51,405 bases of DNA, taken from positions 1-51,405 of IMG/VR virus record IMGVR_UViG_3300044475_000302, one strand, 5' to 3'. Position numbers and translations under genes: made by a program. Shown here piece by piece: positions 5,203 to 43,958 of this stretch. Below the pieces are notes generated by a model. The model was not told the origin of the DNA, made no database searches, and saw only the letters and a list, made by a program, of their open reading frames with translations. The stretch is from a virus (taxonomy: Duplodnaviria > Caudoviricetes). How positions within the stretch are numbered: the first letter of the stretch is position 1; each line of letters starts with the position of its first letter.

Positions 5203-8200
5203 CTATGACCAAACACCAAGTCTCACACGGAGAGTATCAGCAGAGTCAAAAACCTGAATCAGCTTATTGGTCATTGTCAATCTACCGCCACCTTCTGACG
5301 GCCCATTCACCTCGAACTCATTTGTTACAAAATTAATTCTGATACCCTTTTCCCCCTGAACATAGTCAGAAGACTTAAGTTCTCCAGTTATAATCAGATT
5401 GATGATATCGGCCTGGTTGATGATCGCGCTGTTCATGAACACCTGGCCGTTGTTAATCGCAAAGACCGACTTCGGCGTGCCGCCTGGCTGGTTCATGACG
5501 GAGAAGAGGTTCGCCAAGAAGACGATCATCGACTGCATACCATCCGGCGTGTTCTCAACGCTGACGCCCATCCCGGCGCCGTAGTAGACGCCGTTCACGT
5601 CCACGCCGACTTTGATGTTTCGCGTGGCGCGAAGCTCGCCATCAACTCCGACCAGCGCCTCAGCGGTATCCTCGGCCATGGCCCTGGTGCCGTCGAGTTC
5701 AGTGCTTAACGCTGCAACCTGCTGTGCCCGAGCCTCCTCTTCATTCGCCACAGCCTGGGCGACGTTCTGAACACTGCTTTCAGTCTCGCCGACCCGCGCC
5801 GTCAGGGACTCCGATACGCTCGAAAGCGCTGAGACGTCATCAGTGAGCGTCTCCGTTGTGCGCACCACGCGCGCCAGGTTGCCGTCTACTTGAGCCTTGA
5901 CCTCGTCCACCTGTTTTGCGATTGCCATGTCGCCGGCAGCGAAGGCCGAGTAGATCGACCATGCTCCGGCGTAAGAGCCGGTTTCGCCTGGACGCCAGCC
6001 GTCGATTGCGCCAGCCATGTTCGGCGCGACTGCGGCCTCTACGCCCAGCATCCTAATTGCGATGGCCGTCAGTTCGCCGTTTATCTCCTCAACGCTGGTC
6101 TCGACGTTATCGACCCGCACCGCCAGAGCGGTAACTAAATCACCGAGGCTGGCGTAGTCGCCCAGGTACTCCCAGAACGCGGCGTCGGCCACCGGCGTGC
6201 CGGTCGGAACATCGATCTTTGCGCGGTACAGCTTGCCGTCGAGCTTGACCAGCGAGCCGGCCAGGTAGGCCTCGGTTTCGTCCCAGTCGGGCGCCCCGGC
6301 CAAGTCTGCAAGCTGAGACGACAGCGAATCGATCTGGCTTTGCAGCACTTGATCGCCAGCTTGCAGTCGTTCGTTGACCGAACCGGCGCCGTCGCCACTG
6401 ATCTTGCCGATCTCCCCAGCCAGCTGTTGGCCTAGGTGGCTTTCGTTGATCTTGCCGTCCAGATACTCCAGCAGCTCAGCCGCGTCGGCACTGGACTGCC
6501 CGTAGATCCAGTCGGACCAAGGCCCGATGTTGCCGGTCCTGTCGACGAGGCGCGCCCGGAAGAACCGGACAACACCGGCAGCCATACCGGAATGCAGATA
6601 GGTCGAGGTCGGATAGGCCATATCGCCCAGCTCAACCGGGTTCTGCCCTGTGCTCTCCGATGCCATCTGGAACTGGGTATACTCCGTATCCCCTGCTCCC
6701 TCCGGGAAACCCCATACCAGTCGGATACCAAAGATCTCGCTGGTGGTGCGAAGGAACGCTACCGCCGGCGGCGGCGTGGTCTTGCCCTGCACATCGGTGA
6801 GCATCGAGCTGGTGGGTAGCGAGGAGACCTCCATCGAGTTCACCGCACGCACGCGCGCCAGGTACTGGCCGGCGTACACCCCACGGATATCGACCAGCAG
6901 CTCGCCGGTGCGCGGCACCTTCACCCAGTCGCGATCGCCCCACTTCCATTCGACATCGTAGGCAACCGCACCAGGTGCAGCGTCCCAGGCGATCGTCATC
7001 GTGGTGATCGCAATACCCTGGTCGATGGCGGCGCTGTCGCTGATCAGCACCCGGGCCGGCGCCTCCTGCACGCCCGGTGGCAACGCGCTGACCGGACGAT
7101 CATCAATCATCGCGCCGTTGTCGATGTAGTCGAACTTGCTGGGCTCATGCTGGATCAGCTCGAGTTGGAACTGGTGCCACTCCGGCCGCGTGACGTTGCG
7201 GACGTAGAACTGCATGACCTTGAGGTCGTCGTAATCGAGCACCCAGCCGCATTCGGCCTCGGGCGCCTCGCTGTAGTCGGCCATGACGGTGACCGCCCGC
7301 CCCGCTACCGAGCGCACCTGCCGGGCCTCGGACTTGCCGCTTGGCAGGTTGACCAGCAGGCGGGCACCCGTGGGCATCTCTACATCACGATCCAGTGTGA
7401 TCACCCGGCCCGCCGCGGCCGCGATACGGCCGCCATTGGCGCGGCCGGCGAACATAGGGTCGGCCAGGGAGATTACGGTGCCGGGCTTGGGGATGTAGCC
7501 GTCCAGACCAACCCGCGCGGAGGCCGAGCGCAGCTGCAGTTGCTCGGACAGCAACGCCCACTTGCCGGCGCGCTGCGCCTGCCCGCGGGAGGTGCACCCC
7601 ACCGCCTCCACCGAGGTCTCACGGACCCCATACTCCGCAACCGCGTCCTCATCGAACACCGGCTCCTTGTCGGTTTCGAAGCCCTGATCCGGATCGTCGA
7701 ACGAGACCATGGCCAGGCTGTTACGGTCTCGCCACTTGCTGCCTACATACTTGATGGCGCCATCGCCGATGATCTGCGAAGTCGCGTAGTTGTAGACCGG
7801 ATCCTGCGGCATGTCGGCGTTCACGGTGATCTGGTTGCCGTCCCAATAGGCCAGCCCGTGGAAAATCGCCGCCAGGTCTTGCAGAACCGCCCAGGCGTCG
7901 GCCTGCTTCTGCAGGTAGAGGTTGCAGGTGAATCGCGGCTCCTCGCCGCCCTTGCCGTCAGGCACAAACTGGTCGCAGTACTGCGCGATACGGTACAGGG
8001 CCCAGCGGTTGATCATGGTCTGGTCGATGCGGTCGCCCAGGCCGTAGTACGGATTCAGCGCCAGGTCGTAGAACACCCAAGCCGGGTTGTTGGTGTAGGC
8101 CTCTTTGAAAGAGCCGTCCCAGATCCCTCCGCTGGTGCCAGCGCCACTGGTGGCGTAGGTCCGCGACTCCGGGTCGTAGTTCATCGGCACGCGCACGATC

Positions 8201-8985
8201 CGGCCGCGCATCAGGACCGCGATTTTGGCGATATCGCCGCCGAACGCCTGGGCGTCATACTCAACACAGCTGACGGCGGTCAGCGGGTACTCTTGGTCGC
8301 TGTCGACAACTTCGGCCACGGCCTCGACATACATCCCGTCCTGCACCAGGGAGCTGCCAGAATTCGCCGATGTGCGCCGCGCGCGCACGGTCCACCTGCT
8401 GCCCTCTGGAAGCTCGATGCGGTGCGAGCGCTCGTACTTCGTGACGTTCTTGCGCGATACCGAAGACGCCAAAAGCTCCACAAATGGGCCGCCATCGGTG
8501 GAAACATCGATGGCATAGCGAACGGTCACGCCGCTGATGTTGCCGGCCGAGTCCTGAGCCTGGAGGACCGGCCAGCTAAACCGCACGCGCACAGCATCAA
8601 CCATCGGGTTGGTTATCGTGTGCAGCCAGGGGGTCGTGTTCCGCAGCTCCTGCTGAACATCGATCTCGTTACTGGATTCGGTCACGCCCTCGAGGCGCTC
8701 CTGGTTCAGCTCGCCATTCCGAAACTGCCACTTCACCCCGGGGAAGTTGATCGTTCCGTCTTCGGACTGGATAGGCGTGCCGTCGAGGCGCACCGACCGC
8801 AGGCCATTGACCGGCCCGACAATAGGCCCCCAGCTCCAGAGGTAGAGCATCCTCGCCGTGGCAATGGACGGAATGCTGTTGGCGGCGATTGTTGGCTGGC
8901 GCTGCTTTTTGCTGCCGCTTTTGGCGCCGGACACTCTGCGCCGCTGCGCAGGTGCAGCCCTCGGCTTGCGCTTCACTGAGGTCAT
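5203..8985 (-). CDS. Central tail fibre / host specificity protein (lambda J-like)
   Basis: 1260 aa; YTNNPAWVFYD, EPRFTCNLY, GCTSRGQAQRAGKW motifs; Fn3-like segments; C-terminal coiled coil. Confidence 0.93.
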   Translation of the reverse strand: MTSVKRKPRAAPAQRRRVSGAKSGSKKQRQPTIAANSIPSIATARMLYLWSWGPIVGPVNGLRSVRLDGTPIQSEDGTINFPGVKWQFRNGELNQERLEGVTESSNEIDVQQELRNTTPWLHTITNPMVDAVRVRFSWPVLQAQDSAGNISGVTVRYAIDVSTDGGPFVELLASSVSRKNVTKYERSHRIELPEGSRWTVRARRTSANSGSSLVQDGMYVEAVAEVVDSDQEYPLTAVSCVEYDAQAFGGDIAKIAVLMRGRIVRVPMNYDPESRTYATSGAGTSGGIWDGSFKEAYTNNPAWVFYDLALNPYYGLGDRIDQTMINRWALYRIAQYCDQFVPDGKGGEEPRFTCNLYLQKQADAWAVLQDLAAIFHGLAYWDGNQITVNADMPQDPVYNYATSQIIGDGAIKYVGSKWRDRNSLAMVSFDDPDQGFETDKEPVFDEDAVAEYGVRETSVEAVGCTSRGQAQRAGKWALLSEQLQLRSASARVGLDGYIPKPGTVISLADPMFAGRANGGRIAAAAGRVITLDRDVEMPTGARLLVNLPSGKSEARQVRSVAGRAVTVMADYSEAPEAECGWVLDYDDLKVMQFYVRNVTRPEWHQFQLELIQHEPSKFDYIDNGAMIDDRPVSALPPGVQEAPARVLISDSAAIDQGIAITTMTIAWDAAPGAVAYDVEWKWGDRDWVKVPRTGELLVDIRGVYAGQYLARVRAVNSMEVSSLPTSSMLTDVQGKTTPPPAVAFLRTTSEIFGIRLVWGFPEGAGDTEYTQFQMASESTGQNPVELGDMAYPTSTYLHSGMAAGVVRFFRARLVDRTGNIGPWSDWIYGQSSADAAELLEYLDGKINESHLGQQLAGEIGKISGDGAGSVNERLQAGDQVLQSQIDSLSSQLADLAGAPDWDETEAYLAGSLVKLDGKLYRAKIDVPTGTPVADAAFWEYLGDYASLGDLVTALAVRVDNVETSVEEINGELTAIAIRMLGVEAAVAPNMAGAIDGWRPGETGSYAGAWSIYSAFAAGDMAIAKQVDEVKAQVDGNLARVVRTTETLTDDVSALSSVSESLTARVGETESSVQNVAQAVANEEEARAQQVAALSTELDGTRAMAEDTAEALVGVDGELRATRNIKVGVDVNGVYYGAGMGVSVENTPDGMQSMIVFLANLFSVMNQPGGTPKSVFAINNGQVFMNSAIINQADIINLIITGELKSSDYVQGEKGIRINFVTNEFEVNGPSEGGGRLTMTNKLIQVFDSADTLRVRLGVWS

Positions 8986-11493: not shown

Positions 11494-14400
11494 CTCCTCC
11501 CCATGCTTCCGCCCTGGCCGAACTCCTCGTTGAGCACCTTGCGGATCGTCTGCTTCAACCCCTCCCCCATTGCCTCACCCTGCCGACGCGAAGCCTCATC
11601 GCTCATGCCGGGCTGCCCCTGAACGGTGATAGGCGCGTTGATGGTGACACCGCCGCCCCCGCCGCCCACCGCGCCGCCGTCGTTCGCGCTGCGCAGGTAC
11701 TGGGTCAGGTCGCGGTTCTGGCTGGGGTTGAGCACACGCTCACCACCATCGAGCAACCAGGTGCCTTCGCGAGGGATGTTGTCCATGCCGTTGTGCGCCA
11801 TCCCCATCAACGCAGTGGATGCCACGCCGGCAACCATCGGGGCAGTAGTTGCTGCGGCGGCCGCGGCTGCTGCTGGAGCCATGGCCGGGCCCACGATTGG
11901 GATAGCCGCCGTCGAGGAGAACGCGTTCAGCTGAGCCATGAAGGAAGTAGCCTGGGCGTTCGCCACCAGCGCCATGCCGGCGGTTATCTGCGTGGTTTGC
12001 CCAATCGCAGCCTGCACAGCCTGGTAGACAAGCCACTGCGCAGCCATGTCCGTCAAGGCGCTGATCGTGGCTTTGGCAAACCCGGTCACCATGTCGATCA
12101 GGGCGTCACCGGCGTCCTTCGAGCCGGTTGCCACGTCGGACATGAACGAACTGAGCTCGCTCCTGGCGCTACCAAGAACCGAAGTCGTTGCATCTGCAGC
12201 CATGGCTGAGTAGTTCGTTGCCGCGTCAGCGAAGTTCTCCCAGGCGCCAGTAACACCGTCCATCCAATTGGCTTGCGCCTCTTCAAGCTTGCTGTAGTAG
12301 TCCTCCTGCAGCGCCAGGCGCGCAGCCAAAGCCCCGCTGAGCAGCTGCGTTTCCTTGTCGAACAGGTCCTGGCTGATATCGCCGCTGTTTCGCTGCAGAA
12401 CGAGCTCTCGCTGCTGCCGGTTGAAGTCCTCCTCGATCGCCAGCCGCTCCTTCAGCCGCTCCTTGTACTCGTCGCCACGGCCGGCTCCAGCTAGCTCCTG
12501 GTCAAACCCGCTTTTCGCGGTCTGGTAGTCCTCGTTCACGCTGGACCTGAACGCAGCAAGCTTCTTGGCATCCTCCTCGGCTTGCTTCAGCTTTTTCAGG
12601 GCATCCAGTTCAGAAGCCAAGCCCTCGAGGCGCTTGCGTTGCTGAGCGTTGACGCCTTCAAGCTTCCCGGCCGAGATCTCGAAGGCCAGCTTCTCCACTT
12701 CGGTGGCGTTCTTGCGCTTGTCGGTCGAGGTGTTGATCAGCTCGATCTGCCGCTGATACCCCTCCTCCATCTGCTCGAACTGACGACCCAGGGCCTTGCT
12801 GTCTTTGTCGTTGGCTTTAGACTCCTTGAGGGCCTTGCTGGCCTTGTCGATCGCCTCTGCGTACGCAAGTGCCTTCTTTTCATCGGGCGGGGAAAGCTTC
12901 AGCGTTCCTGCGGCCAATTGAGCCCGCAGCTTCTCGACCTCCGTCAGCTTCCCGGCTACTACCGATTGCTTCTCGAGGTTCTTGAGGTAGTTGCCACCGT
13001 CCTTGTCCGAGGCGAGCCTGGAACTGTTCAACTCCTTGTTCAGCTCCTGCAGGGCCAGGCGCAGTGCACCAACTTTTTCCTTCTGCCGGTCAAGGTTGCC
13101 CTGGGAAAGGTTCTTGCCGTTATCGACGTTCTTCTGGAAGACCTCCTGCCACTGCTCGGCCTCTTTCAGCTCTTTGGTCAGGCCAGCAACCTTGTCCTGC
13201 AACTGCTCGTAGGTCTGCCCGGTGAGGTTCTGCGGGATCATATCGCGCGAGGCTCGGCGAATCCGCGCAGAGGCATCTTCAAATGCATCTGCGGCCTTAC
13301 CTGCACCAGCCTCAGCGTTACTGCCAAAGGTCAGGAACGACGCCCCAACAGCCGCCACTGTGAGGACCAATCCTGGGAGGCCGCCCATCACACGCATCAG
13401 GCCGAACCAGGCGCTCTGCAGAGCCGCTATCGCTCGACCAGCAAAAGTTGCTGTCGCGGCCCAAGCGGCGGTCGCTGTGCTTGCGGCATATTGAGCGGCG
13501 GTCACCTGCATCGTAGTGACCGCGACCGCCTCGGTGGCGACAGCCTGTTTTGCCAAGGCGCCGGACACAACGGTCGAACTAGCAACGGTGGTCGCTCCAA
13601 GCTTCGCTTCGGCGGCGGACAACTGGTTGGTAATAGCCACCTCCGCCAGGCGAAGCTCAGCCATACGAGCCACCGACTGCTGCCGACCAACATCAGTGAT
13701 CTGCGCTTGCAGGCGCTGGGCCTCAAGCTGCTTTTCTGCAGCCAGCGAACTCATCACAGCTTGAAGTCTGCCGATCTCAGCAGCCGTGAGCTGTCGCTCT
13801 GCGGCCACCTGCGAGGTGGCAGCCTGAACCGCTTGGCGCGCAGCATTCTGGTTTGCCAGTGCCTCTGCATGGGACGCTTCAGCGCGGCGCAGAGAGCCGT
13901 TGGCCGCGATCATGGCCGCCTCTGCCTGCTCTCTTGCCGCAGCCCTGCCTGCCTGCCAACTGGTGTACAGGGTAGCCAGACTGAGGGCGACCTTGCCCAT
14001 CGCCACGTAGAGGCCGGCAGTCAGAGCCTGCGCAAGCCCTTGAACGCCGGCTGAGTCCCAGGCTTTGGAAGCGCTCAGGGCCGCGGCAGCAAGTGACTTG
14101 GTGAAGCCGAGGGTCTCATCCAGAGAACCTACGAACTTGGTTGCGCTGTTCTCCATTGTCTGGAAGGCGCCGGCGATAGTGGTCTGCGATCTCGCGAACG
14201 CATCATCAATGGCCTGCGTCTGCGACAGGATTGCAGCAAACACCTCTTTCGAGGTGAGCTTCCCGGCCTCACCCATAGAGCGCAGCGATTCCCGCGCGAC
14301 CCCGAGGCCATCCGCGATCGCCTGGGCCAGACCTGGTGCCTGCTCGAGCACCGAGTTGAGTTCTTCCCCTCGAAGCACGCCGGAGGCAAACGCTTGACCC

Positions 14401-28456: not shown

Positions 28457-28710
28457 GCCTGCCCAGCCTTCACCCAACGTCGAATCCTCATTTCGCAGCC
28501 CGAGATCAGGCACACGCCATTTGCAAACCCCAGGTGGGTTTTGTTCGTCTCGCAACCGCATGCGCATTTCGGCTGACGACCTGGTCGCTTCTTGCGTGGC
28601 TCCATGTAGCGGATTTGCCCTGGCTGTCCGCCTACCTGGCCCCATCCGGCAACGCCACCTCGCATTGCAGCCGACCGTGCTGCCGGCGATAGCGCATTCA
28701 AATCGGTCAT
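28453..28710 (-). CDS. Hypothetical Cys-rich protein
   Basis: CACGC..THLG..NGVCL..GC; coupled by ATGA overlaps. Confidence 0.65.
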   Translation of the reverse strand: MTDLNALSPAARSAAMRGGVAGWGQVGGQPGQIRYMEPRKKRPGRQPKCACGCETNKTHLGFANGVCLISGCEMRIRRWVKAGQA

Positions 28711-30005
28711 TTCGAATCCTCGCTAATAACTAATTTGCTAAGGTCGCTCGAAGCCCCGCCGCCGTTGGCCTGTGCCGAATTCTGCGGGATTTCAAATAAG
28801 GCCTCTTTAAGGCCGTGGATGGCGGTGAAGCCGATCCGATCAAGCCACGCATGCCACTTCTCCAGAGCCAACTTGCGCTGCTCCATAGCCTGCGTGTGGA
28901 TGTAGGTGCTGGCGATCTTGCCCAGCGAGTGATTCAGCAGCATCTCGCCAATGTGGCCGTCGATACCGAGGTCGGTCCAAGTGGTGCGGGACACCTTGCG
29001 TAGGTCGTGGCTGGTCCACTCGCCCTGCCCCAGTCGGGTAAACACCATGCTGGCCTGGGTCTCGCTCAATGGCTGCCCACGACGATTCGGGAACAGGTAG
29101 GCGCCCTCGTAGCCCTTGGCCTGCTGGATGGCGCGATAGCGGACCAGCAAGGCATGGAGCTGGGCGGTCAGTGGCAAGCGGTGCTCGGTGCGGGTCTTCG
29201 TGTGGGCGGCTGGAATAAACCACTCAGCAGCAGCCAAGGTGACATCGCTCCAGCGCGCCATGCGGGTCTCACCGATCCGCGTGCCGTGGGCCAGCATCAT
29301 CAAAGCCAGCATGGCGTCACTCGGGCTCGTCTCGAAGGCATGCGCCAACTGCTGCATCAGCTCTGGCAAGTGCACGCCACGCAAGCGAGCAGCCTTTGCG
29401 GTGATCCGCGCCTTGGTGAAGTCACTGAACCGCACTCCTGCCATGGGGTTGGCATCGATCATCTCCAGCTTCATGGCCTGGCGAAAAGCGGTCAGCAGCA
29501 TCCCGAACATCTGCCGGAGATAGGACAGCGACAGCTTGGCCTGGCCTGGCCAGATCAGGTGCTTGTCGATCAGCTCCGCGGTGACATACTTGATTGGCAG
29601 ATCTCCCAAGCATGGGCGAAGGTGCTGACCCACTGCGGCGCGGGTGGCGGCCTTGCGCTTCGCCGACAGGGAGCGGTCGCGAGCCATGCGGTCAACATAC
29701 CAGTCGAGCAGCTGCCCTACCGTGGCCATACCCGAAACCACCAGTGCGGTGGCTGGGCTGCGCATCAAGCGCTGACGAAGCGCGGGCAGTTCTGCCAGCA
29801 CTGCCGACACGCTAAGCTCCGGCCAACGCGCAACCGGCACCCACTTCTTGCCGCGAACCAGGTGCCAAGTGCCGCGCTCGCGATTACTCCAGAAACGCAG
29901 GTACAGGCCAGGATGGCGTGGGTCGCGCAGGTCGCGCACCGACTTGTCACCGGCCTGCCGACGAATCTCCGCCTCGCTGAACTTCACTTCCCGGGTCGCG
30001 CTCAT
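28707..30005 (-). CDS. Tyrosine recombinase (second, nin-region)
   Basis: GTRIGE, HTKT, HDLR, LLNH, STY catalytic set; arm-binding-like N-terminus. Confidence 0.9.
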   Translation of the reverse strand: MSATREVKFSEAEIRRQAGDKSVRDLRDPRHPGLYLRFWSNRERGTWHLVRGKKWVPVARWPELSVSAVLAELPALRQRLMRSPATALVVSGMATVGQLLDWYVDRMARDRSLSAKRKAATRAAVGQHLRPCLGDLPIKYVTAELIDKHLIWPGQAKLSLSYLRQMFGMLLTAFRQAMKLEMIDANPMAGVRFSDFTKARITAKAARLRGVHLPELMQQLAHAFETSPSDAMLALMMLAHGTRIGETRMARWSDVTLAAAEWFIPAAHTKTRTEHRLPLTAQLHALLVRYRAIQQAKGYEGAYLFPNRRGQPLSETQASMVFTRLGQGEWTSHDLRKVSRTTWTDLGIDGHIGEMLLNHSLGKIASTYIHTQAMEQRKLALEKWHAWLDRIGFTAIHGLKEALFEIPQNSAQANGGGASSDLSKLVISEDSK

Positions 30006-33683: not shown

Positions 33684-33725
33684 AGGATAAACACGCATCG
33701 TGTTAATGGCAATCACAATAAGTGA
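33684..33725 (-). promoter_or_regulatory. pR promoter with operators
   Basis: TTGCCA-N17-TATCCT on the minus strand; operators ACACGCATCGTGT (33691-33703) and TCACAATAAGTGA (33713-33725). Confidence 0.75.
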
Positions 33726-33761: not shown

Positions 33762-34586
33762 ATGAACGAATCACTGAGCCAGCGCATCAAGCGCCTGAGA
33801 AAAGCGACCGGGATGTCCCAGGCACAACTGGCGGACGCCTGCGGCTGGAAATCACAGTCGCGTGTGGGCAACTACGAGGCCGGTACCCGCGAGCCGACCT
33901 TGGCAGATATCGCTTCCATTGCATCAGCTCTCGGCGTAGACCAGTCCGAGTTGCTCCTGAATGCCCCTGTTGCCGAGCAGGCTTCTGCGCCTGGCAGAAC
34001 CACGGCCGACTTGGTAAAGCAGATGCTCGCCAAAAGTGGAAAGGGAATTCCAGAAGAAGCTCGACAATGGCTTCTAGCAGCAGCGGAAGACCCTGCCAAT
34101 CAGGCCCTAAATGCGGATGCCGGTCTAGTGACCGCTGACTTCTCTCGGCCAGGCCAGGTTGGCGACGAGGTTTGGATTGCCCACTACGACGTGCGAGCAG
34201 CAATGGGCGGCGGGCAGATTCCGCACGAATACCCCGAAATGCTTCAAGACATCCGGGTCAGCCCAAGGCATCTGCGCGAGATGGGTGTCTCATTCAAAGA
34301 GCACTTCCACCTCAAGATGATCACCGGCTGGGGCCAGTCTATGGCTCCGACGATCAAGGACCGAGATCCACTGCTGGTGGACGTCACGATCCGTGAATTT
34401 ACCGGTGATGGCATCTACCTCTTCTCCCACGACGAGATGCTGTACGTGAAGCGCCTGCAAAAGAAAGGCAAGGATCGTTTCAAGATGATCTCGGACAACA
34501 AGCATCACGATCCCGAGGAGATCCGCGTGGACGACACCCACATCCTGGCTCGAGTGCTTTACGTGTGGAACGGGCAGCCGGTTTGA
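33762..34586 (+). CDS. cI: CI repressor (HTH + S24 peptidase)
   Basis: MSQAQLADACGWKSQSRVGNYEAG HTH; GQSMAP and YVKRL catalytic dyad. Confidence 0.93.
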   Translation: MNESLSQRIKRLRKATGMSQAQLADACGWKSQSRVGNYEAGTREPTLADIASIASALGVDQSELLLNAPVAEQASAPGRTTADLVKQMLAKSGKGIPEEARQWLLAAAEDPANQALNADAGLVTADFSRPGQVGDEVWIAHYDVRAAMGGGQIPHEYPEMLQDIRVSPRHLREMGVSFKEHFHLKMITGWGQSMAPTIKDRDPLLVDVTIREFTGDGIYLFSHDEMLYVKRLQKKGKDRFKMISDNKHHDPEEIRVDDTHILARVLYVWNGQPV

Positions 34587-34904: not shown

Positions 34905-35429
34905 ATGGCGAAAGCCGGAAAAATTCCATACGTCGATGCTATGTCGGCGATTTCTCTGGAAAAAGCATGGGCTGGAGCTACCACCATTTTATGGGTTGGC
35001 ACGGGCGGCAACGGGTTTCCTATTGCCCATAAGTGCCGCGTGCCGGTTTCCTGTAAAGGTGTAGTGCAAGAAGGGCTTTTCATTGACTTGTTCCACAAGT
35101 TCAGCGATTTGCCTGGGGTTCCTGACAAGGTCAGTATGACCCTAGTGTCCGGAGGGGCAAGGGTTCTTGCCCTGGATGAAAACGGGCCCACCACGCATGT
35201 GAATGCTGTTGGCCGGGGCATGCCGCACTTCCAGAAGCTGGCAGACCACCCGCACCTTCATACCCCTGTTCCTGAAAGCTCGTCTGGCTATGCGGAGCCC
35301 ATCGATCGGGTTCACATTGAGGCCCTGTGGCGCATCTTCCTAGAGCGTGCCAACATTGAGGGCGCACCACCCTTCAATCTCCCTAATCGAGGACCGCAAG
35401 AAAACAGCGGGCAAATGGATCTCCTATGA
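34905..35429 (+). CDS. Hypothetical protein, partner of the downstream DUF1828-like gene
   Basis: H-x-N and HPHLH motifs; ATGA overlap with next gene. Confidence 0.75.
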   Translation: MAKAGKIPYVDAMSAISLEKAWAGATTILWVGTGGNGFPIAHKCRVPVSCKGVVQEGLFIDLFHKFSDLPGVPDKVSMTLVSGGARVLALDENGPTTHVNAVGRGMPHFQKLADHPHLHTPVPESSSGYAEPIDRVHIEALWRIFLERANIEGAPPFNLPNRGPQENSGQMDLL

Positions 35430-36190
35430 ATTGCGCAGACATCAGCAGGCAGCTTGGCTTTCAATGCCGCCATATCAGCGATGGCCTGACATACATTCAG
35501 TCCCCTCTGACCCTGGCATTTGATGGCGCGGCAATTGGTGCGTTTGTTCAAGATATCGGTCGCGGCCTGGTCCGGATCACTGATAACTCTGACATCCTCT
35601 TCACGGCCATGACGCACGGCATAGCGCCGGACCAGAGGCGCTCCAGAAAATTCGGTGAGATTGCCAAGCTAAGTGGAATGTCCTTTTCCGAGAATGGGGA
35701 GCTGCATACCGTTTGCTCCCAGGATGAAGCGGGCTTCCAGATCGCCAGATTTATCGAGGCGGCATCCCGGATCGGAGATGCGTGTGACGATATGCTGGTT
35801 ATCCATGTCCCAAAATTCCAACGCAAGGTAGGGTCGATCCTGGCAAGAAGGTATAAGGAGAGCCTGCGACGAGATTTCGTGCTCAGCGGGGCCAGCGGTC
35901 ACCAACTGACCTTCCCCTTCGTTATCAACATCGGCAGGCCGGATCAGATGGTGATCCAGACCATCGCGGCTGGATCCTCCGGGAAACCTAACTGGGCAAG
36001 CATCTATGGGGCTGTCGGGAAAATGGGGGACCTTAAAAACTCCCGCGACAGAACTAAGCGCACGATCATTCTGGAGCAAGGCGAGGAGCAGTCCACTCAG
36101 CAAGCTATGGTTGCTCTGGCCGAGTCGGCTTCCATTGTTGTCTACGACGGAAACAATCAGCACCTATACGACGCGCTTCAAGCGGCGTAA
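35426..36190 (+). CDS. DUF1828-like protein with possible degenerate PD-(D/E)XK-like C-terminal domain
   Basis: SPLTLAFDG, VRITDNSD, GASGHQLTFPF motifs (recalled family pattern). Confidence 0.65.
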   Translation: MNCADISRQLGFQCRHISDGLTYIQSPLTLAFDGAAIGAFVQDIGRGLVRITDNSDILFTAMTHGIAPDQRRSRKFGEIAKLSGMSFSENGELHTVCSQDEAGFQIARFIEAASRIGDACDDMLVIHVPKFQRKVGSILARRYKESLRRDFVLSGASGHQLTFPFVINIGRPDQMVIQTIAAGSSGKPNWASIYGAVGKMGDLKNSRDRTKRTIILEQGEEQSTQQAMVALAESASIVVYDGNNQHLYDALQAA

Positions 36191-36221: not shown

Positions 36222-36243
36222 AGCCCGCCTCGGCGGGCTTTTT
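36222..36243 (+). terminator. Intrinsic terminator
   Basis: AGCCCGC-CTCG-GCGGGCT-TTTT. Confidence 0.75.
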
Positions 36244-36328: not shown

Positions 36329-36766
36329 ATGCGCTCTCTCGCTGCCACCGCCCTCCTCTGCCTATCCCTCGTAGGCTGCGCCTCTGTCCCTATGGCCAAT
36401 ACACAGGACGACAGTGATGCCAAGCGCTTCTCCCCAGCGCCTGACATGTCTGGCATCTACATCTACCGAAATGAGTTCGTTGGCGCCGCCATCAAGATGC
36501 CTGTTGTGCTTGATGGAAGACAGCTAGGGAAGACTGTCGCTTACAGCTACCTGTATAAAGAAGTGCCGCCAGGCAAGCACATCATCACCGCCGATGGCGA
36601 GAATACCGATCTCCTGAAGGTTGAGACCCGAGCTGGCCAAGCCATTTTCATTCATCAGGAGGTGAAGATGGGGTTCGCAGTTGCTCGCAGCGGTATGAGG
36701 GTCGTTGATTCGACCGAAGGCAAAGCAGGCGTGCTTGAGTGCAAGCTGATCGAGTCGCAGTACTAG
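36329..36766 (+). CDS. Lipoprotein (DUF2846-like)
   Basis: Lipobox LVGC; GIYIYRNE, YLYKEVPPGKH motifs. Confidence 0.8.
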   Translation: MRSLAATALLCLSLVGCASVPMANTQDDSDAKRFSPAPDMSGIYIYRNEFVGAAIKMPVVLDGRQLGKTVAYSYLYKEVPPGKHIITADGENTDLLKVETRAGQAIFIHQEVKMGFAVARSGMRVVDSTEGKAGVLECKLIESQY

Positions 36767-36820: not shown

Positions 36821-37144
36821 TCAGAAAGGTGCCTCCTCCTCAACCTCAATCTCGCTGTCCTCCTCGATGATGAAGTCGTCGCGATCTTGAGCTGCGCTCT
36901 GCTCCCACCGGACAGTCACGCTACCGTCATCATCGAACGTCAGATCAAGCTCAGGCGTTTCGGCCAGCAGCCCCATCACCTCCTCCCACTCCATATCTCC
37001 ATCCGTGTCCAGGCGATGGATCGTCACCCAGCGCTGCGTCTGCGCGAGCGGATGATTGATCATCGACGAAACCCTCAGGCTCAGACGTTCTAGCCCGGTC
37101 ATTTCCTCACGCTGAAGTACTGCTTCTTTCTTCTGCTTGGACAT
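36821..37144 (-). CDS. DUF1654-like protein, SOS-regulated
   Basis: ERLSLRVSSMINHPLAQ..VTIHRLDTD..WEEV; AAGGAG RBS; LexA box upstream. Confidence 0.75.
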   Translation of the reverse strand: MSKQKKEAVLQREEMTGLERLSLRVSSMINHPLAQTQRWVTIHRLDTDGDMEWEEVMGLLAETPELDLTFDDDGSVTVRWEQSAAQDRDDFIIEEDSEIEVEEEAPF

Positions 37145-37160
37145 AAGCACCTCTCCTTAA

Positions 37161-37176
37161 CTGTATATCCATCCAG
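37161..37176. promoter_or_regulatory. LexA (SOS) box
   Basis: CTGTATATCCATCCAG. Confidence 0.8.
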
Positions 37177-37195
37177 TATTTGAAGCGAGAATACA

Positions 37196-37299
37196 TCACG
37201 CCTTGTGAAAGGTGAAGCCGCCGTGTAGCGAAAACCATCATCACACCACTCACGAAAATCACATTACGTGTTGACACAATAAACACAATGCGTGATATT
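37196..37299 (+). promoter_or_regulatory. pL promoter with three operators
   Basis: TTGACA-N17-GATATT (37271-37299); WCAC-N5-GTGW sites at 37196-37208, 37259-37271, 37283-37295 match the pR operators. Confidence 0.8.
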
Positions 37300-37353
37300 T
37301 GTCTCGACACGCAGCCTCTCACCAAGAGCTGCCAAGGCCCCATCACTGGCCAC

Positions 37354-37433
37354 CGCTCTTTACACATCGTCGGGAACCTCGCGGATCGATCCCCGGTAAC
37401 GGGAAGCCCCATGTGGGCATCGCTGAAAAGCGA
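37354..37433 (+). promoter_or_regulatory. nut-like site: boxA and GNRA hairpins
   Basis: CGCTCTTTAC at 37354-37363; CCCG-GTAA-CGGG; TCGCT-GAAA-AGCGA at 37420-37433. Confidence 0.55.
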
Positions 37434-38005
37434 ACAGCGCGAGCAACAAATTCGATCCCCATGCCAGCTCTGGAACTGGCCAGCTCGATGTCAGGCGCTT
37501 ACGGCGCGGACGGAGGGTTGAGCTGCAACGCTCCCTGCCAGGTGGCCCTCAGAACGGGCTGATGCACTGGTAAAGCGGGCCACGCCGGATAACCGGTGGA
37601 GGCTGCAGCAATTAAATAATCGCCCAGGACACCGTGGCGCGTAACGGATCCCAGTTAGACAGATTTGAATTAGCGCCCCGAGCCTCGGCATTGAGGGGCG
37701 CCGGACCTCATGCACCCTGCCCCGCTCAGTCAGGGCATTCAGAGCTGTAGCGTGCATGTTGTAAGGACCTGCGATCCATGGCGAACAGATGCTGATTGAC
37801 GCCGTGAGGAGGAAGCTCGACGCCCGCAACCATGACGAACCGCTGAGCTGCAATCACTAGCGGCACACGCGGCGCCACCCTAGCGCAGAGGGAATCATCG
37901 CTGACGCAATGCCCCGGCCTGTCGCCAGTAGCGAGGCCGGGTCCACCGATTCACTGAAGCACCTGGGCGACCGGGTGCTTTGGGAATCCACTGGAGGAAC
38001 ACGGC

Positions 38006-38206
38006 ATGACCACGATCATCAAGGACACCTTCACCAGCGGTGCTCAGGTGAGCATGGAGATGGACAAGGACGCAGAAGAGCTTTTCGTCTTCCACTGCCC
38101 AGCCGGCCAAGGCTGCATCGTCAGCAAATGGCCGCTAGACAGCGACCACATGCCGATCGCGATGGCGCATTACCAGGAGTGCTGCGAGCTGGAGAGTGCA
38201 CCCTGA
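38006..38206 (+). CDS. Small early protein
   Basis: GGAGG RBS; 66 aa. Confidence 0.7.
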   Translation: MTTIIKDTFTSGAQVSMEMDKDAEELFVFHCPAGQGCIVSKWPLDSDHMPIAMAHYQECCELESAP

Positions 38207-38269
38207 TTTCACTGGCTGGCCTTGGCGACAGGGCCAGACGGGAAATCAACCGCCCCGGAGGGCAGATCG

Positions 38270-38482
38270 ATGTCTCAGACATTCGAGCAAGGTTGGGCGG
38301 CTCGACCATTCGCTCAGCAGTTCCCGGAAATGAGCGCCGACGAGGCCAAGCGCCTCGACCACATCAATACGTCCATCACCACGCTGTATCTGGCAGGCCT
38401 GTTGACCGACAAGCAGGCGAACGAAATCCGCACCAAGAAATTCCCCAGGGTCGTCACCAAGGCGGTCCTGGGCAAGCGTTGA
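38270..38482 (+). CDS. Small early protein
   Basis: GGAGG RBS supplied by the repeat; starts MSQTFEQGW. Confidence 0.7.
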   Translation: MSQTFEQGWAARPFAQQFPEMSADEAKRLDHINTSITTLYLAGLLTDKQANEIRTKKFPRVVTKAVLGKR

Positions 38483-38549
38483 GCGATTTCACTGGCTGGT
38501 CTTGGCGACAGGGCCAGACGGGAAATCAACCGCCCTGGAGGGCAAGACG

Positions 38550-38852
38550 ATGAGCTGCACCTGCATCAGCGATGCCGTGAAGCTGGTTACGGACCAGCTT
38601 GCTGAGGAGGCGCCAGGGTCTGGGCCTTTCTACATGCGCGCAGAGGGCCACAATCTGTCACTGAACATCGAGACAGGAAAAGCCGCTCGGCGCTACTGCG
38701 TAGAGGTCACTGGCCACTACATGGCGCCGAAAAGGGCTGGAGGAATGAAGCGCGTGAACAAGACCGTTTCGGTGGTCGCCAACTACTGCCCGCTTTGCGG
38801 CAAGAAGTGCGCGACAGACGAAGAAGAGACAACCAGCGCCACGTCAGCCTGA
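38550..38852 (+). CDS. Small early Zn-binding protein
   Basis: MSCTC...NYCPLCGKK; RBS supplied by the repeat. Confidence 0.75.
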   Translation: MSCTCISDAVKLVTDQLAEEAPGSGPFYMRAEGHNLSLNIETGKAARRYCVEVTGHYMAPKRAGGMKRVNKTVSVVANYCPLCGKKCATDEEETTSATSA

Positions 38853-40583: not shown

Positions 40584-41060
40584 ATGACCCAATCTGCACT
40601 GCAATCCATCGCCGCCGCCGACTTGCCGGAACGTGGCCAGCCCCTGGCTGGTGGCACCTTCCTGACACGCTACTGGCTGAACGGCCAAGAGCGAGCACTG
40701 ATCCAGCTTGACGTCGAGTTCGAAGGCATCTGGGGCAAGTACGGGGTGAAGATCCCAGGCGCCGACAGCTACAGCGACGGCGAGGCGAACACCCGCGCCA
40801 TGGCCGAGGCCGGCTGCGAGATCGCCATCAAGGCGCTGGAGCTGGGCGCGTTCATCCCTTCCTGCCTGGAAGGCCAACTGGTGATGGCTGCTCAGGCTGA
40901 TGGCCTGGTAGCCATGCGCGAAGATCGCTTCCACTGGCTGAGCACGCAGTTCGCCGCCAACGTCGCCTACTTCTTGGGCTTTGAGGATGGCTGGCTCTTC
41001 AACGGCGGCAAGTACAGCGAGCGTCTCGTCCGCCCCGTCCGCAGCCTTCCAATCCAGTAA
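40584..41060 (+). CDS. DGR target protein 1 (DUF1566/C-type-lectin-like, 158 aa)
   Basis: GGAG RBS; DGEANT, FIPS..E, HWLSTQ, C-terminal RLVRPVR; carries VR1. Confidence 0.9.
   Translation: MTQSALQSIAAADLPERGQPLAGGTFLTRYWLNGQERALIQLDVEFEGIWGKYGVKIPGADSYSDGEANTRAMAEAGCEIAIKALELGAFIPSCLEGQLVMAAQADGLVAMREDRFHWLSTQFAANVAYFLGFEDGWLFNGGKYSERLVRPVRSLPIQ
40945..41044 (+). repeat. DGR variable repeat VR1
   Basis: Versus TR: 11 substitutions at TR adenines and 1 T-to-G near the 5' edge. Confidence 0.95.
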
Positions 41061-41083
41061 TTCACCCATTCATTCCTTTTCTC

Positions 41084-41156
41084 GCAGGCGATTCCGGGTT
41101 CGTCAGGACGACGATCAGACCAGAAGCACGCCGGGAAGCGCCGGCCGCCTGCACCC
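41084..41156 (+). ncRNA. tRNA-sized structured element between the two DGR target genes
   Basis: GCAGGCG/CGCCTGC 7-bp stem stacked on GCCGG-N6-CCGGC arm, followed by ACC. Confidence 0.45.
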
Positions 41157-41177
41157 CACTTCGACAGGAACGACCTC

Positions 41178-41774
41178 ATGGAAAACGCTCCATTGATTGG
41201 CACCCTCAACATCCACCTCACGGCTCCGGCATTGAGCCCGCTGGCGTCAGCCTTGGTCAGCGCGCTGCTCAAGCAGGGCGAGCAGCGCCCAGCGGCCAGC
41301 GCCGAAGAGATCAAGCTGACCCCTCCTGAGATCGGCAAATACTGGCCAGGCCAAGGTGGCATCTACGGCGGTCTTCGCCAATACCCCGAGGGCCTGTGCC
41401 ACATCATCTTTGCCGCTGAGGATGTCGGGAAGCACGCCTTTGGCGATTACGGCGAGGAGGTAGAAGGCACCAACCAGATCGACGGGCGCGCCAATACCGC
41501 GATCTTGCTCGCCCGCGAGGGCAAGCATCCGGCAGCCATCGCCGCAGCCGGCTACACCGCAGATGGTCACGCCGACTTCTACCTGCCAGCCTCCAGCGAG
41601 CTGCATCACGGCTACCTGTACCTGCCAGAGTCGTTCGAAAAGGCCTGGTATGTGTCGAGTTCGCAGTTCTCCGCCTACTACGCCTACGACATGGACTTTG
41701 AGGATGGCTGGCTCGGCTACGTCGACAAGTACAGCGAGCGTCTCGTCCGCCCCGTCCGCAGAATCCTTCAGTAA
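41178..41774 (+). CDS. DGR target protein 2 (DUF1566/C-type-lectin-like, 198 aa)
   Basis: PEIGKYWPGQGGIYGG, DGRANT, DFYLPASSEL, WYVSSSQ, RLVRPVRR; carries VR2. Confidence 0.92.
   Translation: MENAPLIGTLNIHLTAPALSPLASALVSALLKQGEQRPAASAEEIKLTPPEIGKYWPGQGGIYGGLRQYPEGLCHIIFAAEDVGKHAFGDYGEEVEGTNQIDGRANTAILLAREGKHPAAIAAAGYTADGHADFYLPASSELHHGYLYLPESFEKAWYVSSSQFSAYYAYDMDFEDGWLGYVDKYSERLVRPVRRILQ
41661..41762 (+). repeat. DGR variable repeat VR2
   Basis: Versus TR: 8 substitutions, all at TR adenines within AAC codons. Confidence 0.96.
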
Positions 41775-41791
41775 CTCAGTTATTCATTCAT

Positions 41792-41807
41792 GGGCGCCTC
41801 GGCGCCC
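41792..41807. promoter_or_regulatory. GC-rich hairpin/cruciform downstream of VR2 (DGR target-recognition element)
   Basis: GGGCGC-CTCG-GCGCCC, ~30 bp after VR2. Confidence 0.7.
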
Positions 41808-41826
41808 TCGCTTTTAGGAGGCCAGG

Positions 41827-42180
41827 ATGGCCCTGCACACGGATCTCGAGATCCACAAGGTAGGCGAAGAGCTGTTCCAGCTTTCGCTCAACCTGGTTCG
41901 CCACATCCCACGCGACCTGAAGCAGGTTGCCGGCAACAAGATCCGAGACGTATGCCTCGACATCCTGCTGCTGATCGGTCGGGCGAACATGGCGCGCGAC
42001 AAGCGCCAGTATCTCACCCAGGTGATCGAAAACACCTGGGCGCTCAACTACCTGTTCAGGGCTCTGTCCGACTGCGCAGCTATCAGCCGAGGCCAACACG
42101 CCAAGGTCATGAAGCTCACAGCCTCCGTTGGACGCCAGGCGAATGCCTGGAAGAAATCCGCAACCGCGCCCGCCGCTTGA
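41827..42180 (+). CDS. avd: DGR accessory variability determinant (Avd, four-helix bundle)
   Basis: 117 aa basic helical protein, L.IHK..PRDLK..G.KI...VGRQANAWKK; lies between targets and TR. Confidence 0.88.
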   Translation: MALHTDLEIHKVGEELFQLSLNLVRHIPRDLKQVAGNKIRDVCLDILLLIGRANMARDKRQYLTQVIENTWALNYLFRALSDCAAISRGQHAKVMKLTASVGRQANAWKKSATAPAA

Positions 42181-42335
42181 GGGTCAAGGCTCTCTTGCCT
42201 GTGCGCTGAATCTGGTCGTGCCGCTGATCTGTGATCACCGCCATGCGCAGCACGGATACCACCGGCAACTGCCGGCAGGTCCGGCGCAGTTTCCAGGCTG
42301 AGCAATCGTCCTGGCGACGTAGATAGCACGATAGG

Positions 42336-42437
42336 TCGCAGTTCTCCGCCAACAACGCCTACAACATGGACTTTGAGGATGGCTGGCTCAACAACAACGA
42401 CAAGTACAGCGAGCGTCTCGTCCGCCCCGTCCGCAGA
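42336..42437 (+). ncRNA. DGR template repeat TR
   Basis: Six AAC codons in the VR frame and 26 adenines; between avd and RT. Confidence 0.95.
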
Positions 42438-43548
42438 TTCGCCCGTTGCGAGCTTCACCTTCGAGGAATTGGCCCAGGCCTATTACGACTGCCGACGGCG
42501 CAAGCGGAATACCGCAAGCGCACGACGCTTCGAGATCGACATGGAAGCCAATCTCCTCGACCTATTCGAAGAGCTTCAGGTCGGCACCTACCGGCCTGGC
42601 CGCTCCATCTGCTTTGTGGTCACGCGGCCAAAGGCCCGCGAGGTGTGGGCTGCCGAGTTCCGAGACCGCATCGTGCACCATCTGCTGTACAACCGCATCG
42701 GCCCCGCCATCGAGCGCAGCTTCATAGCGGACAGCTGCGCCTGTATCCCAGGGCGCGGCACGCTGTACGCCGGTAAACGCATGGAGGCGAAGATCCGCAG
42801 CCAGACGCAGAACTGGTCGAAGCCTGGCTTCTACCTCAAGTGCGACCTGGCCAACTTCTTCGTGTCGATCGACAAGCGCGTGCTTGCCCAGCAGTTGGCC
42901 GCACGCATAGACGATCCTTGGTTTCGCCAGCTCGCGCTACAGGTGCTCATGCACGACCCGCGTGAGAACTACGTCGAGCGCAGCCCGGCACACCTGTTCA
43001 ACCGGGTGCCGCAACACAAGCGACTGACCGCGCAGCCTGCGTACCTGGGGCTGCCCATCGGCAACCTGTCGTCGCAGTTCTTCGCCAACGTCTACCTCGA
43101 CTCCCTGGACAAGTTCTGCAAACACACGCTCAGGGCCAAGCACTACATCCGCTACGTCGACGACTTCGTGCTGCTGCATGAGTCGCCGCAGCAGCTGAAT
43201 GGATGGCTCCAGCAGATCGAAGACTTCCTGCCCAGCCTGGGCGTCAGGCTCAACCCGTCGAAGACGATACTTCAACCAATCGAGCGTGGCGTGGACTTCG
43301 TCGGGCACGTGATAAAGCCCTGGCGGCGCACCGCTCGCAAGAAGTCGGTGGCCCAGGCCATGAAGCGAGTTGCCGCAGCACCTGCCGAAGACCTGCGCGA
43401 GACGGCGAACAGTTACTTCGGCCTGCTTGGCCAGGCCAGCCACAGCCAGAAAGATCGCGCCGCGCTGGCCAACTTGGTGCTGCGCCGCGGGCATATCGTC
43501 AATAGCGCGCTGACCCAGACCTACCCAAGGAAAAGGACAACCCCATGA
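42379..43548 (+). CDS. DGR reverse transcriptase
   Basis: FRDRIVHH, LKCDLANFFVSI, GLPIGNLSSQFFANVYL, YIRYVDDF, GVDFVGH; start uncertain (ATG 42379 or TTG 42373, both inside TR). Confidence 0.95.
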   Translation: MAGSTTTTSTASVSSAPSADSPVASFTFEELAQAYYDCRRRKRNTASARRFEIDMEANLLDLFEELQVGTYRPGRSICFVVTRPKAREVWAAEFRDRIVHHLLYNRIGPAIERSFIADSCACIPGRGTLYAGKRMEAKIRSQTQNWSKPGFYLKCDLANFFVSIDKRVLAQQLAARIDDPWFRQLALQVLMHDPRENYVERSPAHLFNRVPQHKRLTAQPAYLGLPIGNLSSQFFANVYLDSLDKFCKHTLRAKHYIRYVDDFVLLHESPQQLNGWLQQIEDFLPSLGVRLNPSKTILQPIERGVDFVGHVIKPWRRTARKKSVAQAMKRVAAAPAEDLRETANSYFGLLGQASHSQKDRAALANLVLRRGHIVNSALTQTYPRKRTTP

Positions 43549-43958
43549 GCAACTACAACTGCGACTACGTTCGTCGCCACTACAACGTCCCGGCTGAGGT
43601 TGGGCGTCGGGTGATTGCCAACGGCGAGCCCGGCATCATCATGGCTGATCGCGGCCATTACATCGGCGTCATCCTCGACAGCGATCCGAAGAAGCGCATC
43701 CGCAACTACCACCCAACCTGGGAAATGCAGTACGGCGATATGGCCAAGGAACTTCCGCTCAAGCAGTGGGAGGTGCTCACCAACGGCATGTATGACTGGG
43801 ATGACGTGAGGTACATGCTGGGCGATGCGCGCCATTATGTGCTCCGGGTATGGGCAGCGACCCGCAGCCAAGCCAAATACCGGGCCTATCAAGAGCTGGC
43901 CGACTGCTTCAACGACGACGCCACAGCAATGCTGACCTTCAAGGTGCGCGCTGCCTGA
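43545..43958 (+). CDS. Hypothetical early protein
   Basis: ATGA overlap with the RT stop; YVRRHYNVPAEVGRRV..YHPTW. Confidence 0.75.
   Translation: MSNYNCDYVRRHYNVPAEVGRRVIANGEPGIIMADRGHYIGVILDSDPKKRIRNYHPTWEMQYGDMAKELPLKQWEVLTNGMYDWDDVRYMLGDARHYVLRVWAATRSQAKYRAYQELADCFNDDATAMLTFKVRAA

Follow-up and report, generated by a model that had tools for sequence, protein, structure and literature searches.

The provirus record IMGVR_UViG_3300044475_000302 of IMG/VR, rated 100% complete, was analysed over its entire 51,405 bases (the window) and represents a lambda-like siphovirus prophage of Pseudomonas with 61% G+C. Between positions 40,584 and 43,548 its plus strand carries a diversity-generating retroelement (DGR), in which a reverse transcriptase (RT) and an Avd protein accompany one template repeat (TR) and two variable repeats (VRs). 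Each VR encodes the C-terminus of a small protein, and we call these two target proteins T1 and T2. The element has the following features.

40584-41060, plus strand: T1, a small DUF1566-like protein of 158 aa; open reading frame (ORF) with a ribosome-binding site; phrog_4245, E 1.5e-20; VR1 is its C-terminus
40945-41044, plus strand: VR1, 11 mismatches at TR adenines plus one T-to-G change
41178-41774, plus strand: T2, a DUF1566/Lcl_C-like protein of 198 aa; phrog_4245, E 2.1e-29; VR2 is its C-terminus
41661-41762, plus strand: VR2, 8 of 8 mismatches at TR adenines
41792-41807, plus strand: GC hairpin GGGCGC-CTCG-GCGCCC, 30 nt after VR2, from a terminator-like scan
41827-42180, plus strand: avd, 117 aa; PF22296 (bAvd), 48.8 bits against a cut-off of 40; phrog_3206
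42164-42338, plus strand: RT-15 structured RNA (Rfam RF03018), 167.7 bits against a gathering score of 82
42336-42437, plus strand: TR, 26 A in 102 nt, with six AAC codons in the target frame
42373-43548, plus strand: ORF of the DGR reverse transcriptase; RVT_1, 65.9 bits; phrog_1423, E 1.7e-116

One template repeat serves two variable repeats

The DGR of the window is complete and real. TR, VR2 and VR1 align without gaps in one register, and every VR2 mismatch falls on a TR adenine (positions 42351, 42354, 42363, 42390, 42391, 42393, 42396 and 42397). Within the 100 nt of VR1, 11 of 12 mismatches do so, the remaining one being T42345 to G; extension to the 102-nt register adds two differences at the outer edges, T42336 to A and A42437 to C. 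By the hypergeometric distribution, an adenine bias of this size would arise by chance with a probability of about 7e-6 for VR2 and about 2e-6 for VR1. The non-adenine positions of the TR are unchanged at 76 of 76 sites in VR2 and, in the 102-nt register, at 74 of 76 in VR1. The 150 nt 5' of VR1 and of VR2 are identical at merely 53 of 150 positions without gaps, so that similarity is confined to the VRs; since the DNA of T1 and T2 is unrelated immediately 5' of the repeats, something has kept the last 100 nt alike.

TR and VRs make up the largest direct-repeat family found by a repeat search of the window, and a DNA search of the whole record returned exactly three TR-like copies; the tail genes are therefore without a VR. 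Both VRs stand at the 3' end of the target ORFs, ending 12-16 nt before the stop codon, and the GC-rich 3' end GTCCGCCCCGTCCGCAG is identical in TR, VR1 and VR2. Translated in the target frame, the TR reads SQFSANNAYNMDFEDGWLNNNDKYSERLVRPVRR, and variation of all 18 A-bearing codons would allow about 6e14 different peptides for each target. An earlier note, made from the letters of this DNA, had described the gapless match with its adenine changes (eight in VR2; 11 plus a T-to-G in VR1), two VRs varied independently from a single TR, the lack of a VR copy in the tail genes, and avd with an intact YVDD/GNLSSQ RT after the targets. All of these were recovered in the alignments, the ORFs and the Pfam and PHROG matches, and the peptide strings that it quoted for the two VRs are present.

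Avd matches phrog_3206, named 'Avd protein of DGR', at E 2e-24, and scores 44 bits against the NCBIfam model DivGenRetAVD, under the 80-bit cut-off of that model. The RT ORF is intact and its translation, read from the sequence, holds YVDD and IGNLSSQ; the motif [I/L]GxxxSQ marks DGR RTs. The listed RT start falls inside the TR, and the true start is uncertain because the protein aligns with its homologues from residue 17 on (71% identity to the RTs of the phages phPA-G and Haboob) and because a stop interrupts the corresponding upstream part in two genomes. RT-15 is full length and sits after avd, with its 3' end where the TR begins. It was also found directly 5' of the TR in all 11 further related loci scanned (L001, L011, L012, L053, L071, L077, L081, L085, L092, L093 and L100), that is in 12 of 12 elements with the window, and can thus be assigned to this DGR class.

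The hairpin at 41792-41807 is a putative target-recognition hairpin, an attenuator before avd, or both. A hairpin or cruciform 3' of the VR is required in BPP-1. Across the family, a perfect GC-rich stem of at least 6 bp occurs within 90 nt 3' of 52 of 103 VRs and of 11 of 103 control segments; the fold after VR2 is itself unexceptional (z -0.98).

From these parts the following mechanism may be proposed. One transcript with the RT-15 RNA and the TR would be copied by an RT-Avd complex that misincorporates at template adenines, homing would start at the shared GC-rich 3' end, and the cDNA would replace the last 34 codons of the paralogues T1 and T2. Alternatively the element could be a frozen relic, its VRs written in the past by a DGR that no longer works in the prophage. 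Ongoing activity cannot be read from one sequence, a non-adenine change and the lack of a convincing downstream hairpin (by stem scan or folding) mark VR1, and the RT start codon is unclear. Nevertheless we hold a relic to be very unlikely: no ORF is disrupted, the RT keeps YVDD and its SQ motif, RT-15 is kept at full length with 167.7 bits, the non-adenine positions are identical as counted above while the flanks are unrelated, and close relatives with the same TR carry different VRs. Because the VR boundaries are sharp and the VRs of close relatives vary, the DGR has probably been active recently, and may still be.

The cassette recurs beside the immunity region of related phages

Searches of deposited phages with blastn found the same block in the P. 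aeruginosa phages phPA-G and Haboob and also in SC_8_H2H8_2017, Cruim01 and LPPA56, with RT and avd matches in Burkholderia phage Magia and others. phPA-G and Haboob have the order CI, small genes, two targets, Avd and RT, then methylase, bet and exo. They have one TR in common, and their VRs differ at adenines (13 of 13, 15 of 16, 13 of 14 and 17 of 17 cases).

IMG/VR was then scanned with the family alignment, yielding 80 viral loci; neighbouring genes were probed with the window's own proteins, so that divergent genes are missed in the counts that follow. Of the 80, 62 carry a CI-like gene on the strand of the target and upstream of it (median 2 kb), and 34 carry DnaB or RepO, likewise upstream, on the opposite strand. 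LuxR is found upstream of the target, in the order CI, LuxR, target, in 23 of the 80 and also in the genome locus L003 and in L026. The RT follows downstream in 43 loci and is full length in 39; a structural-protein match lies within 10 kb in four. The 39 loci with a full RT gave 101 TR-VR pairs with 1448 mismatches, 1318 of which (91%) are at TR adenines, adenine being 29.5% of the TR bases. One TR serves a single VR in one locus, two in 15, three in 22 and four in one, and in three loci (L022, L062 and L077) fewer than 80% of the mismatches are at adenines. Likewise, 40 T2-type and 19 T1-type aligned proteins vary almost solely at VR codons, and T1 has orthologues of 69-78% identity in 12 viral loci, which differ at those codons.

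Both expectations that had been set for homologous cassettes, an early-region location and, as a check on an inactive element, adenine-specific variation, thus agree with what the relatives carry. The rarity implied by the earlier note does not: the cassette is widespread and present in deposited phage genomes, and its target class is already catalogued.

A more distant homologue was observed in the jumbo phage PA5oct (MK797984, locus L102), where a stand-alone protein of 163 aa (37081-37572, EST35_0104) resembles the VR-bearing C-terminus and sits among small genes in the long terminal repeat. The nucleotide identity of about 72% is confined to the last 130 nt.

Targets lie downstream of a promoter-like site with operator-like palindromes

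The position of the cassette in the prophage is defined by these features.

2622-4193, minus strand: tail fibre
5203-8985, minus strand: J protein
33762-34586, plus strand: CI, followed by three ORFs and a terminator
37258-37272 and 37282-37296: operator-like palindromes AACAC-N5-GTGTT, which flank the promoter-like site
37271-37299, plus strand: inferred pL-type promoter, TTGACA-17-GATATT, sigma-70-like with 10 of 12 matches

The minus strand carries endolysin, tail fibre, J, tape measure, major head protein, portal and large terminase, then DnaB, an O-like initiator and Cro. The plus strand after the inferred pL has small ORFs, a LuxR-type gene and a helix-turn-helix gene before T1, T2, avd, TR and RT, with a C5 methylase and more early genes 3' of the RT cassette. 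The targets are therefore 33-38 kb from the phage's own J and tail fibre, outside the tail module, and the promoter-like site is 3.3 kb upstream of T1. When one mismatch is allowed, the palindrome has a third and last copy in the window at 33690-33704, in the cI-cro gap, giving three copies in 51 kb where 0.62 are expected by chance. Hence 37258-37299 may be read as a putative pL with OL, repressed by CI, and the targets would lie in the leftward early operon, downstream of a promoter with CI-operator-like sites and expressed from it. The claim that the targets are under a CI-repressed pL among early genes fits at the level of these patterns.

Among readings that place the targets inside the cell, the earlier note had suggested adaptive anti-defence or host-takeover proteins: made early in infection, T1 and T2 would bind variable host defence proteins with their diversified tips and neutralise them. 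In keeping with this, the early accessory genes that include the targets stand behind a putative pL-type promoter, every progeny genome is able to bring a different variant, and two or three targets per TR are usual (15 and 22 loci). We nonetheless find such a role, one of several possible ones, rather unlikely, and none of the results favours it. No likeness to a known anti-defence protein was found, the search being limited to PADLOC, which covers defence proteins and gave nothing for T1 and T2. In RT-less relatives the target homologue directly follows CI and a LuxR-type gene with gaps of 65-92 nt, which is the place of lysogen-expressed rather than infection-only genes. Furthermore, the DNA-binding fusion described below would be unexpected for a stoichiometric inhibitor.

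The targets are small domains without export signals

T1 and T2 are 35% identical, T2 carrying an N-terminal extension of 45 residues. T2 has 475 relatives, whose source names are DUF1566 proteins of Pseudomonas species. Against Lcl_C/DUF1566 (PF07603), T2 scores E 0.0024 and 18.6 bits, under the cut-off of 34.9 bits, and T1 has no Pfam match; Lcl_C is matched at E <= 0.01 by 29 of 40 relatives, the best at 1.1e-6. The targets resemble the DUF1566/Lcl_C family and are not members of it by Pfam's own rule.

As the earlier note had stated for the 158- and 198-aa proteins, a signal peptide is not evident. A crude rule-based script (hydrophobic window of 19 residues at 1.6 or more) found no lipobox, Tat motif, signal-like N-terminus or transmembrane segment in T1 or T2, flagged the window lipoprotein at 36329-36766 used as control, and detected export signals in 0 of 40 T2-type and 0-1 of 16 T1-type relatives. 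Pfam and PHROG recognised no N-terminal domain in T1 or T2. In the shortest relatives about ten residues precede the domain, and among 3404 candidates two longer forms of close relatives were seen (351 and 365 aa), namely a tandem duplication and a 365-aa protein. When 31 N-extended representatives were searched with Pfam, one had Arc, one had DUF6378 and the other N-termini were without a domain. The domain alone is silent on the compartment, because giant multi-repeat proteins and the Legionella protein LdtA share the domain or VR class.

A further observation concerns residues 4-16 of T2 (41187-41225), which form a strand motif, APL-[IV]-x3-[T/N]-L-x-[L/I]-x-[L/I/V/F], before a variable linker. 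Of 40 aligned relatives 27 have the strand, and distant representatives show it as well (for example QLTLNI, NLQLHL). Its part [T/N/Q]-L-x-[L/I]-x-[L/I/V/F] resembles the beta-clamp-binding hexapeptide QLxLxL; as an alternating strand pattern is common, we give a clamp-binding role low odds. In structural searches, the Atlas had no T2 model and its feature matches only repeat DUF1566. For the heterodimer that the earlier note had considered possible, a T2 plus T1 complex predicted from custom alignments scored 0.01 against a mark of 0.32, which speaks neither for nor against binding.

An alternative to a role inside the cell is that T1 and T2, although encoded in the early operon, end up on the virion or the cell surface as accessory adhesins or receptor-binding proteins, the DGR serving host or surface recognition as for Mtd of BPP-1 or LdtA of Legionella. 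The DGR targets characterised by experiment in the cited work are displayed on virions or surfaces (Roux 2021, PMC8144416; Wu 2018, PMC5758913), giant multi-repeat proteins belong to the same domain family, and the N-terminal strand of the T2 class with its variable linker could be a docking peptide. Several findings argue the other way, and we regard a virion or surface role as unlikely. The crude screen found no signal peptide, lipobox, Tat motif or transmembrane segment, and the domain is preceded by about 10 residues in the shortest class. The genes are 33-38 kb from the tail genes, and a structural match lies within 10 kb in four of the 80 loci. Close relatives are without fibre-like fusions, and some paralogues have a DNA-binding domain of the AmrZ type (alginate and motility regulator Z) in place of an N-terminal piece.

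Some homologues are fused to an AmrZ/Arc domain and rewritten in trans

The most useful new handle on target function is a group of relatives with an N-terminal Arc domain. PF03869 (Arc) was found in 8 of the 120 relatives listed, with 35-41 bits against a cut-off of 20.4, and the DNA-binding domain of AmrZ (PDB 3QOQ) is matched at E 2.6e-8 by the first 46 residues of the fused relatives. The fused relatives are L003-L007, L027, L028, L032, L045 and L049. In the viral loci, Arc is fused to the target in 5 of 80, and a stand-alone Arc gene directly follows the target homologue in nine, a link of the Rosetta-stone type.

L003-L007 are genome loci in which the full fusion is one ORF, and none of them has an RT or Avd within 10 kb. 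An RT with 76-77% identity to that of the window is encoded elsewhere on the chromosome in two of these five genomes; the remaining three are draft assemblies, two without an RT and one with a weak match. Each of the two complete genomes has exactly four TR copies, comprising the TR, two adjacent VRs and the Arc-fused gene, which lies 2.6 or 2.37 Mb from the TR on the other strand. The VR of the Arc-fused gene differs from the TR at adenines in 14 of 14 and 12 of 12 cases and is identical at 72 of 72 non-A positions. 5' of its VR, the Arc gene is merely 43-52% identical, without gaps, to the cassette's own targets. As the only remote TR copy, with adenine-only changes, the Arc-fused gene is a target written in trans.

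In L003 the Arc fusion comes after CI-like and LuxR-type genes, with gaps of 92 and 65 nt, near an integrase. In RT-less elements, namely L003 (10768-11502 and 11499-12233) and L026 (about 12050-12836), the Arc-fused or T2-type target has a second DUF1566-like protein behind it, about 244 aa long and lacking a VR. A metallophosphatase-like gene also follows in L003, and an integrase is near the RT-less elements.

These fusions bring in a third explanation, in which the targets are prophage-borne sensors or regulators whose variable tip reads competing phages or cellular cues and is coupled to DNA directly, as in the Arc fusions, or via a partner. The outcome would be superinfection control that adapts, or a tuned lysis-lysogeny decision. 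Among the targets of a DGR is an AmrZ/Arc-fused paralogue, nine loci have a stand-alone Arc gene next to the target homologue, and LuxR stands between CI and the target in 23 of 80 loci and in L003 and L026. Moreover, a gene of one integrated element is rewritten by the DGR of another prophage on that chromosome, and regulators and sensors that work in the cell and are diversified by DGRs have been proposed in other systems (PMC7517822, PMC7159879). On the other side, the window has no Arc gene, PADLOC gave no match, and the targets of the window may be silent in the lysogen because they are behind an operator-bearing promoter. We treat a sensor or regulator as possible but doubtful. The Arc fusions speak for the family and not for T1 and T2 directly; as DGR targets, they lend indirect support to an intracellular role of the window's targets.

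Interpretation

We propose that T1 and T2 would act in the infected or lysogenic cell as hypervariable binding modules rather than as virion receptor-binding proteins, and we think this composite statement, drawn from sequence comparison, reasonably probable. Their binding would be used in phage-host or phage-phage conflict or in regulation. The sequences themselves show the anatomy of the element, adenine-specific changes in the window and its relatives, an early-operon place kept among them, and a DNA-binding fusion in relatives that is targeted in trans; present activity, expression from pL, a cytoplasmic location and any ligand are inferred.

A number of observations weigh against this proposal. 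Concerning the proteins themselves, the Lcl_C matches of the targets stay under the Pfam cut-off, and the broad family profile (15,546 representatives at E <= 0.001) also matches giant multi-repeat proteins of 889-4301 aa. The Legionella protein LdtA, of the same VR class, is a surface lipoprotein (PMC5758913). In the T2 class, the conserved strand at the N-terminus could serve to dock the protein to the virion or another structure. On the question of a C-type lectin fold around the VR, AlphaFold2 gave a predicted local distance difference test score (pLDDT) of 37.6 from the single sequence and 48.3 from a 40-row alignment, both poor, and a profile search of PDB returned weak matches only, the best being HbP1 (8q4e, E 0.024). 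The Arc fusions are a minority lineage, present in 8 of 120 listed clusters and 5 of 80 viral loci, with a single case among 31 N-extended representatives; tblastn found no Arc domain in the window, and PADLOC found nothing for the Arc fusion either. Concerning the DNA, VR1 carries its one non-adenine change within 40945-41044 and is not followed by a convincing hairpin in the stem scan or folding. Two of 100 shuffles reach three copies of the operator palindrome, and the pattern-based promoter scan gave four sites where 3.3 were expected. Finally, a text search of the papers on phPA-G, Haboob and Cruim01 found no mention of an RT or a DGR.

Between counter-defence and a prophage-side sensor we make no choice. 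The CI-LuxR-target order in RT-less relatives and the Arc fusions lead us to lean slightly to the sensor, and the operator-bearing promoter of the window leans towards expression on induction or infection. A wider statement is tentative, and we would expect it to fail more often than hold: this DGR family may diversify an intracellular recognition module beside the immunity region of temperate Pseudomonas phages, which in one lineage is wired to AmrZ/Arc and rewritten in trans across co-resident prophages. Such a module would be an adaptive sensor/regulator or a counter-defence binder, and the Arc fusion the first DGR-diversified DNA-binding protein.

If the targets are cytoplasmic, DGRs would be a source of adaptive diversity in binding for conflict within cells, whether phage-host or phage-phage; if they are virion or surface parts, this is an ordinary DGR with oddly placed target genes. 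The DGR machinery is aimed at small signal-less proteins of the early operon in a common cassette of culturable Pseudomonas phages, and the P. aeruginosa phages phPA-G or Haboob make a cytoplasmic role testable at the bench. The relatives provide a handle, a target fused to a well-understood DNA-binding domain and rewritten by an RT 2.4-2.6 Mb away.

Neighbouring genes and elements

Two further features flank the regions described above.

36222-36239: strong bidirectional terminator, closing the genes after CI
43545-43958, plus strand: orf137, its start overlapping the RT stop (ATGA); phrog_16342, E 8.8e-74

No Pfam, NCBIfam or PADLOC match was obtained for orf137. A homologue follows the RT in phPA-G and in 5 of the 39 viral loci with a full RT, and orf137 is linked to the RT and probably not a core DGR part.

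The genes at 34905-35429 and 35426-36190 directly follow CI, in the position of lambda rexAB. The latter encodes a DUF1828/DUF1829 protein of 254 aa with matches to phrog_1960 and, at E 8e-9, to PDC-M24B, a candidate defence family of PADLOC. Between the terminator of the cI operon and the inferred pL are a DUF2846 lipoprotein with the lipobox LVGC (36329-36766, plus strand) and an acidic DUF1654 protein (36821-37150, minus strand), and these two genes look like morons. About 700 nt (37300-38005) separate the inferred pL from the first early gene; they contain no convincing ORF and no Rfam family at gathering score. Two elements of 68 nt (38205-38272 and 38485-38552), 93% identical, are found immediately 5' of consecutive small early genes. 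They fold as long hairpins of -35.7 and -31.8 kcal/mol, as stable as none of 200 shuffles (z -3.6), each followed by a small hairpin over a GGAGGG ribosome-binding site, and may act in translational control, processing or antitermination. An integrase-family protein (28707-30005, minus strand; phrog_1, E 5e-48) is encoded in the rightward replication/late region and not at a prophage end.

Comparison with known systems

Like BPP-1 (mtd-avd-TR-brt), the window combines RT, Avd and TR with adenine-specific rewriting of a C-terminal VR and a shared GC-rich 3' end (PMC5737381, PMC8144416). The two systems differ in their targets: Mtd is the tail-fibre tip, a single target in the structural module, whereas the targets of the window are a pair of separate proteins, 158 and 198 aa long, from the early left operon. 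Of the features of Mtd-like proteins, they lack the place in the tail module, and no virion-attachment domain was recognised in them. They also differ in the template RNA. The corresponding motif of BPP-1, RT-10, lies 3' of the TR (PMC5737381), whereas RT-15 is 5' of it in the window, so that the folded RNA is on the other side of the template.

The target class is known from Wu 2018 (PMC5758913), as category 'd' (CLec2/DUF1566), half of which are short single-domain proteins. As with the CLec2-type VRs described there, which lie over DUF1566, DUF823 or Fib_succ_major motifs, the VR in the window overlaps a weak DUF1566 match. The lipoprotein or Tat/Sec signal of LdtA/TvpA-like targets is absent from T1, T2 and 56 relatives by the crude script. 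Yan 2019 (PMC6642488) figures one TR with two VRs in two DUF1566 ORFs, and the accessible parts of that paper and of PMC5758913 do not discuss an early-operon position or DNA-binding fusions. Pseudomonas is among the genera richest in DGRs (PMC6642488 and the preprint of Roux et al.), and that preprint notes prophage-borne DGRs 'targeting uncharacterized proteins'.

The closest deposited relatives are phPA-G (VB_PaD_phPA-G, PP083311, Detrevirus) and Haboob (OR683404), with two targets, avd, TR and RT after a CI-like repressor and before methylase and recombination genes. They and their relatives differ from the window in the TR and target sequences (46-47% identity), and their targets are annotated 'hypothetical protein'. 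RT-15 was also detected in phPA-G, the one phage of this group that was scanned, and the Cruim01 record annotates an RT-15 feature. Burkholderia phage Magia (MT701587; PMC7883833), a myophage of another host genus, has RT and Avd of 68% nucleotide identity.

A literature search that covered few subscription journals returned nothing on an early-operon position of this cassette or on an Arc- or DNA-binding-fused target. The window DGR is a member of a catalogued class, and the Arc-fused trans target is new. The ribbon-helix-helix domain of AmrZ/Arc is matched by the N-terminus of the fused relatives and not by the window; unlike AmrZ, these relatives continue into a DUF1566-like domain diversified by a DGR.

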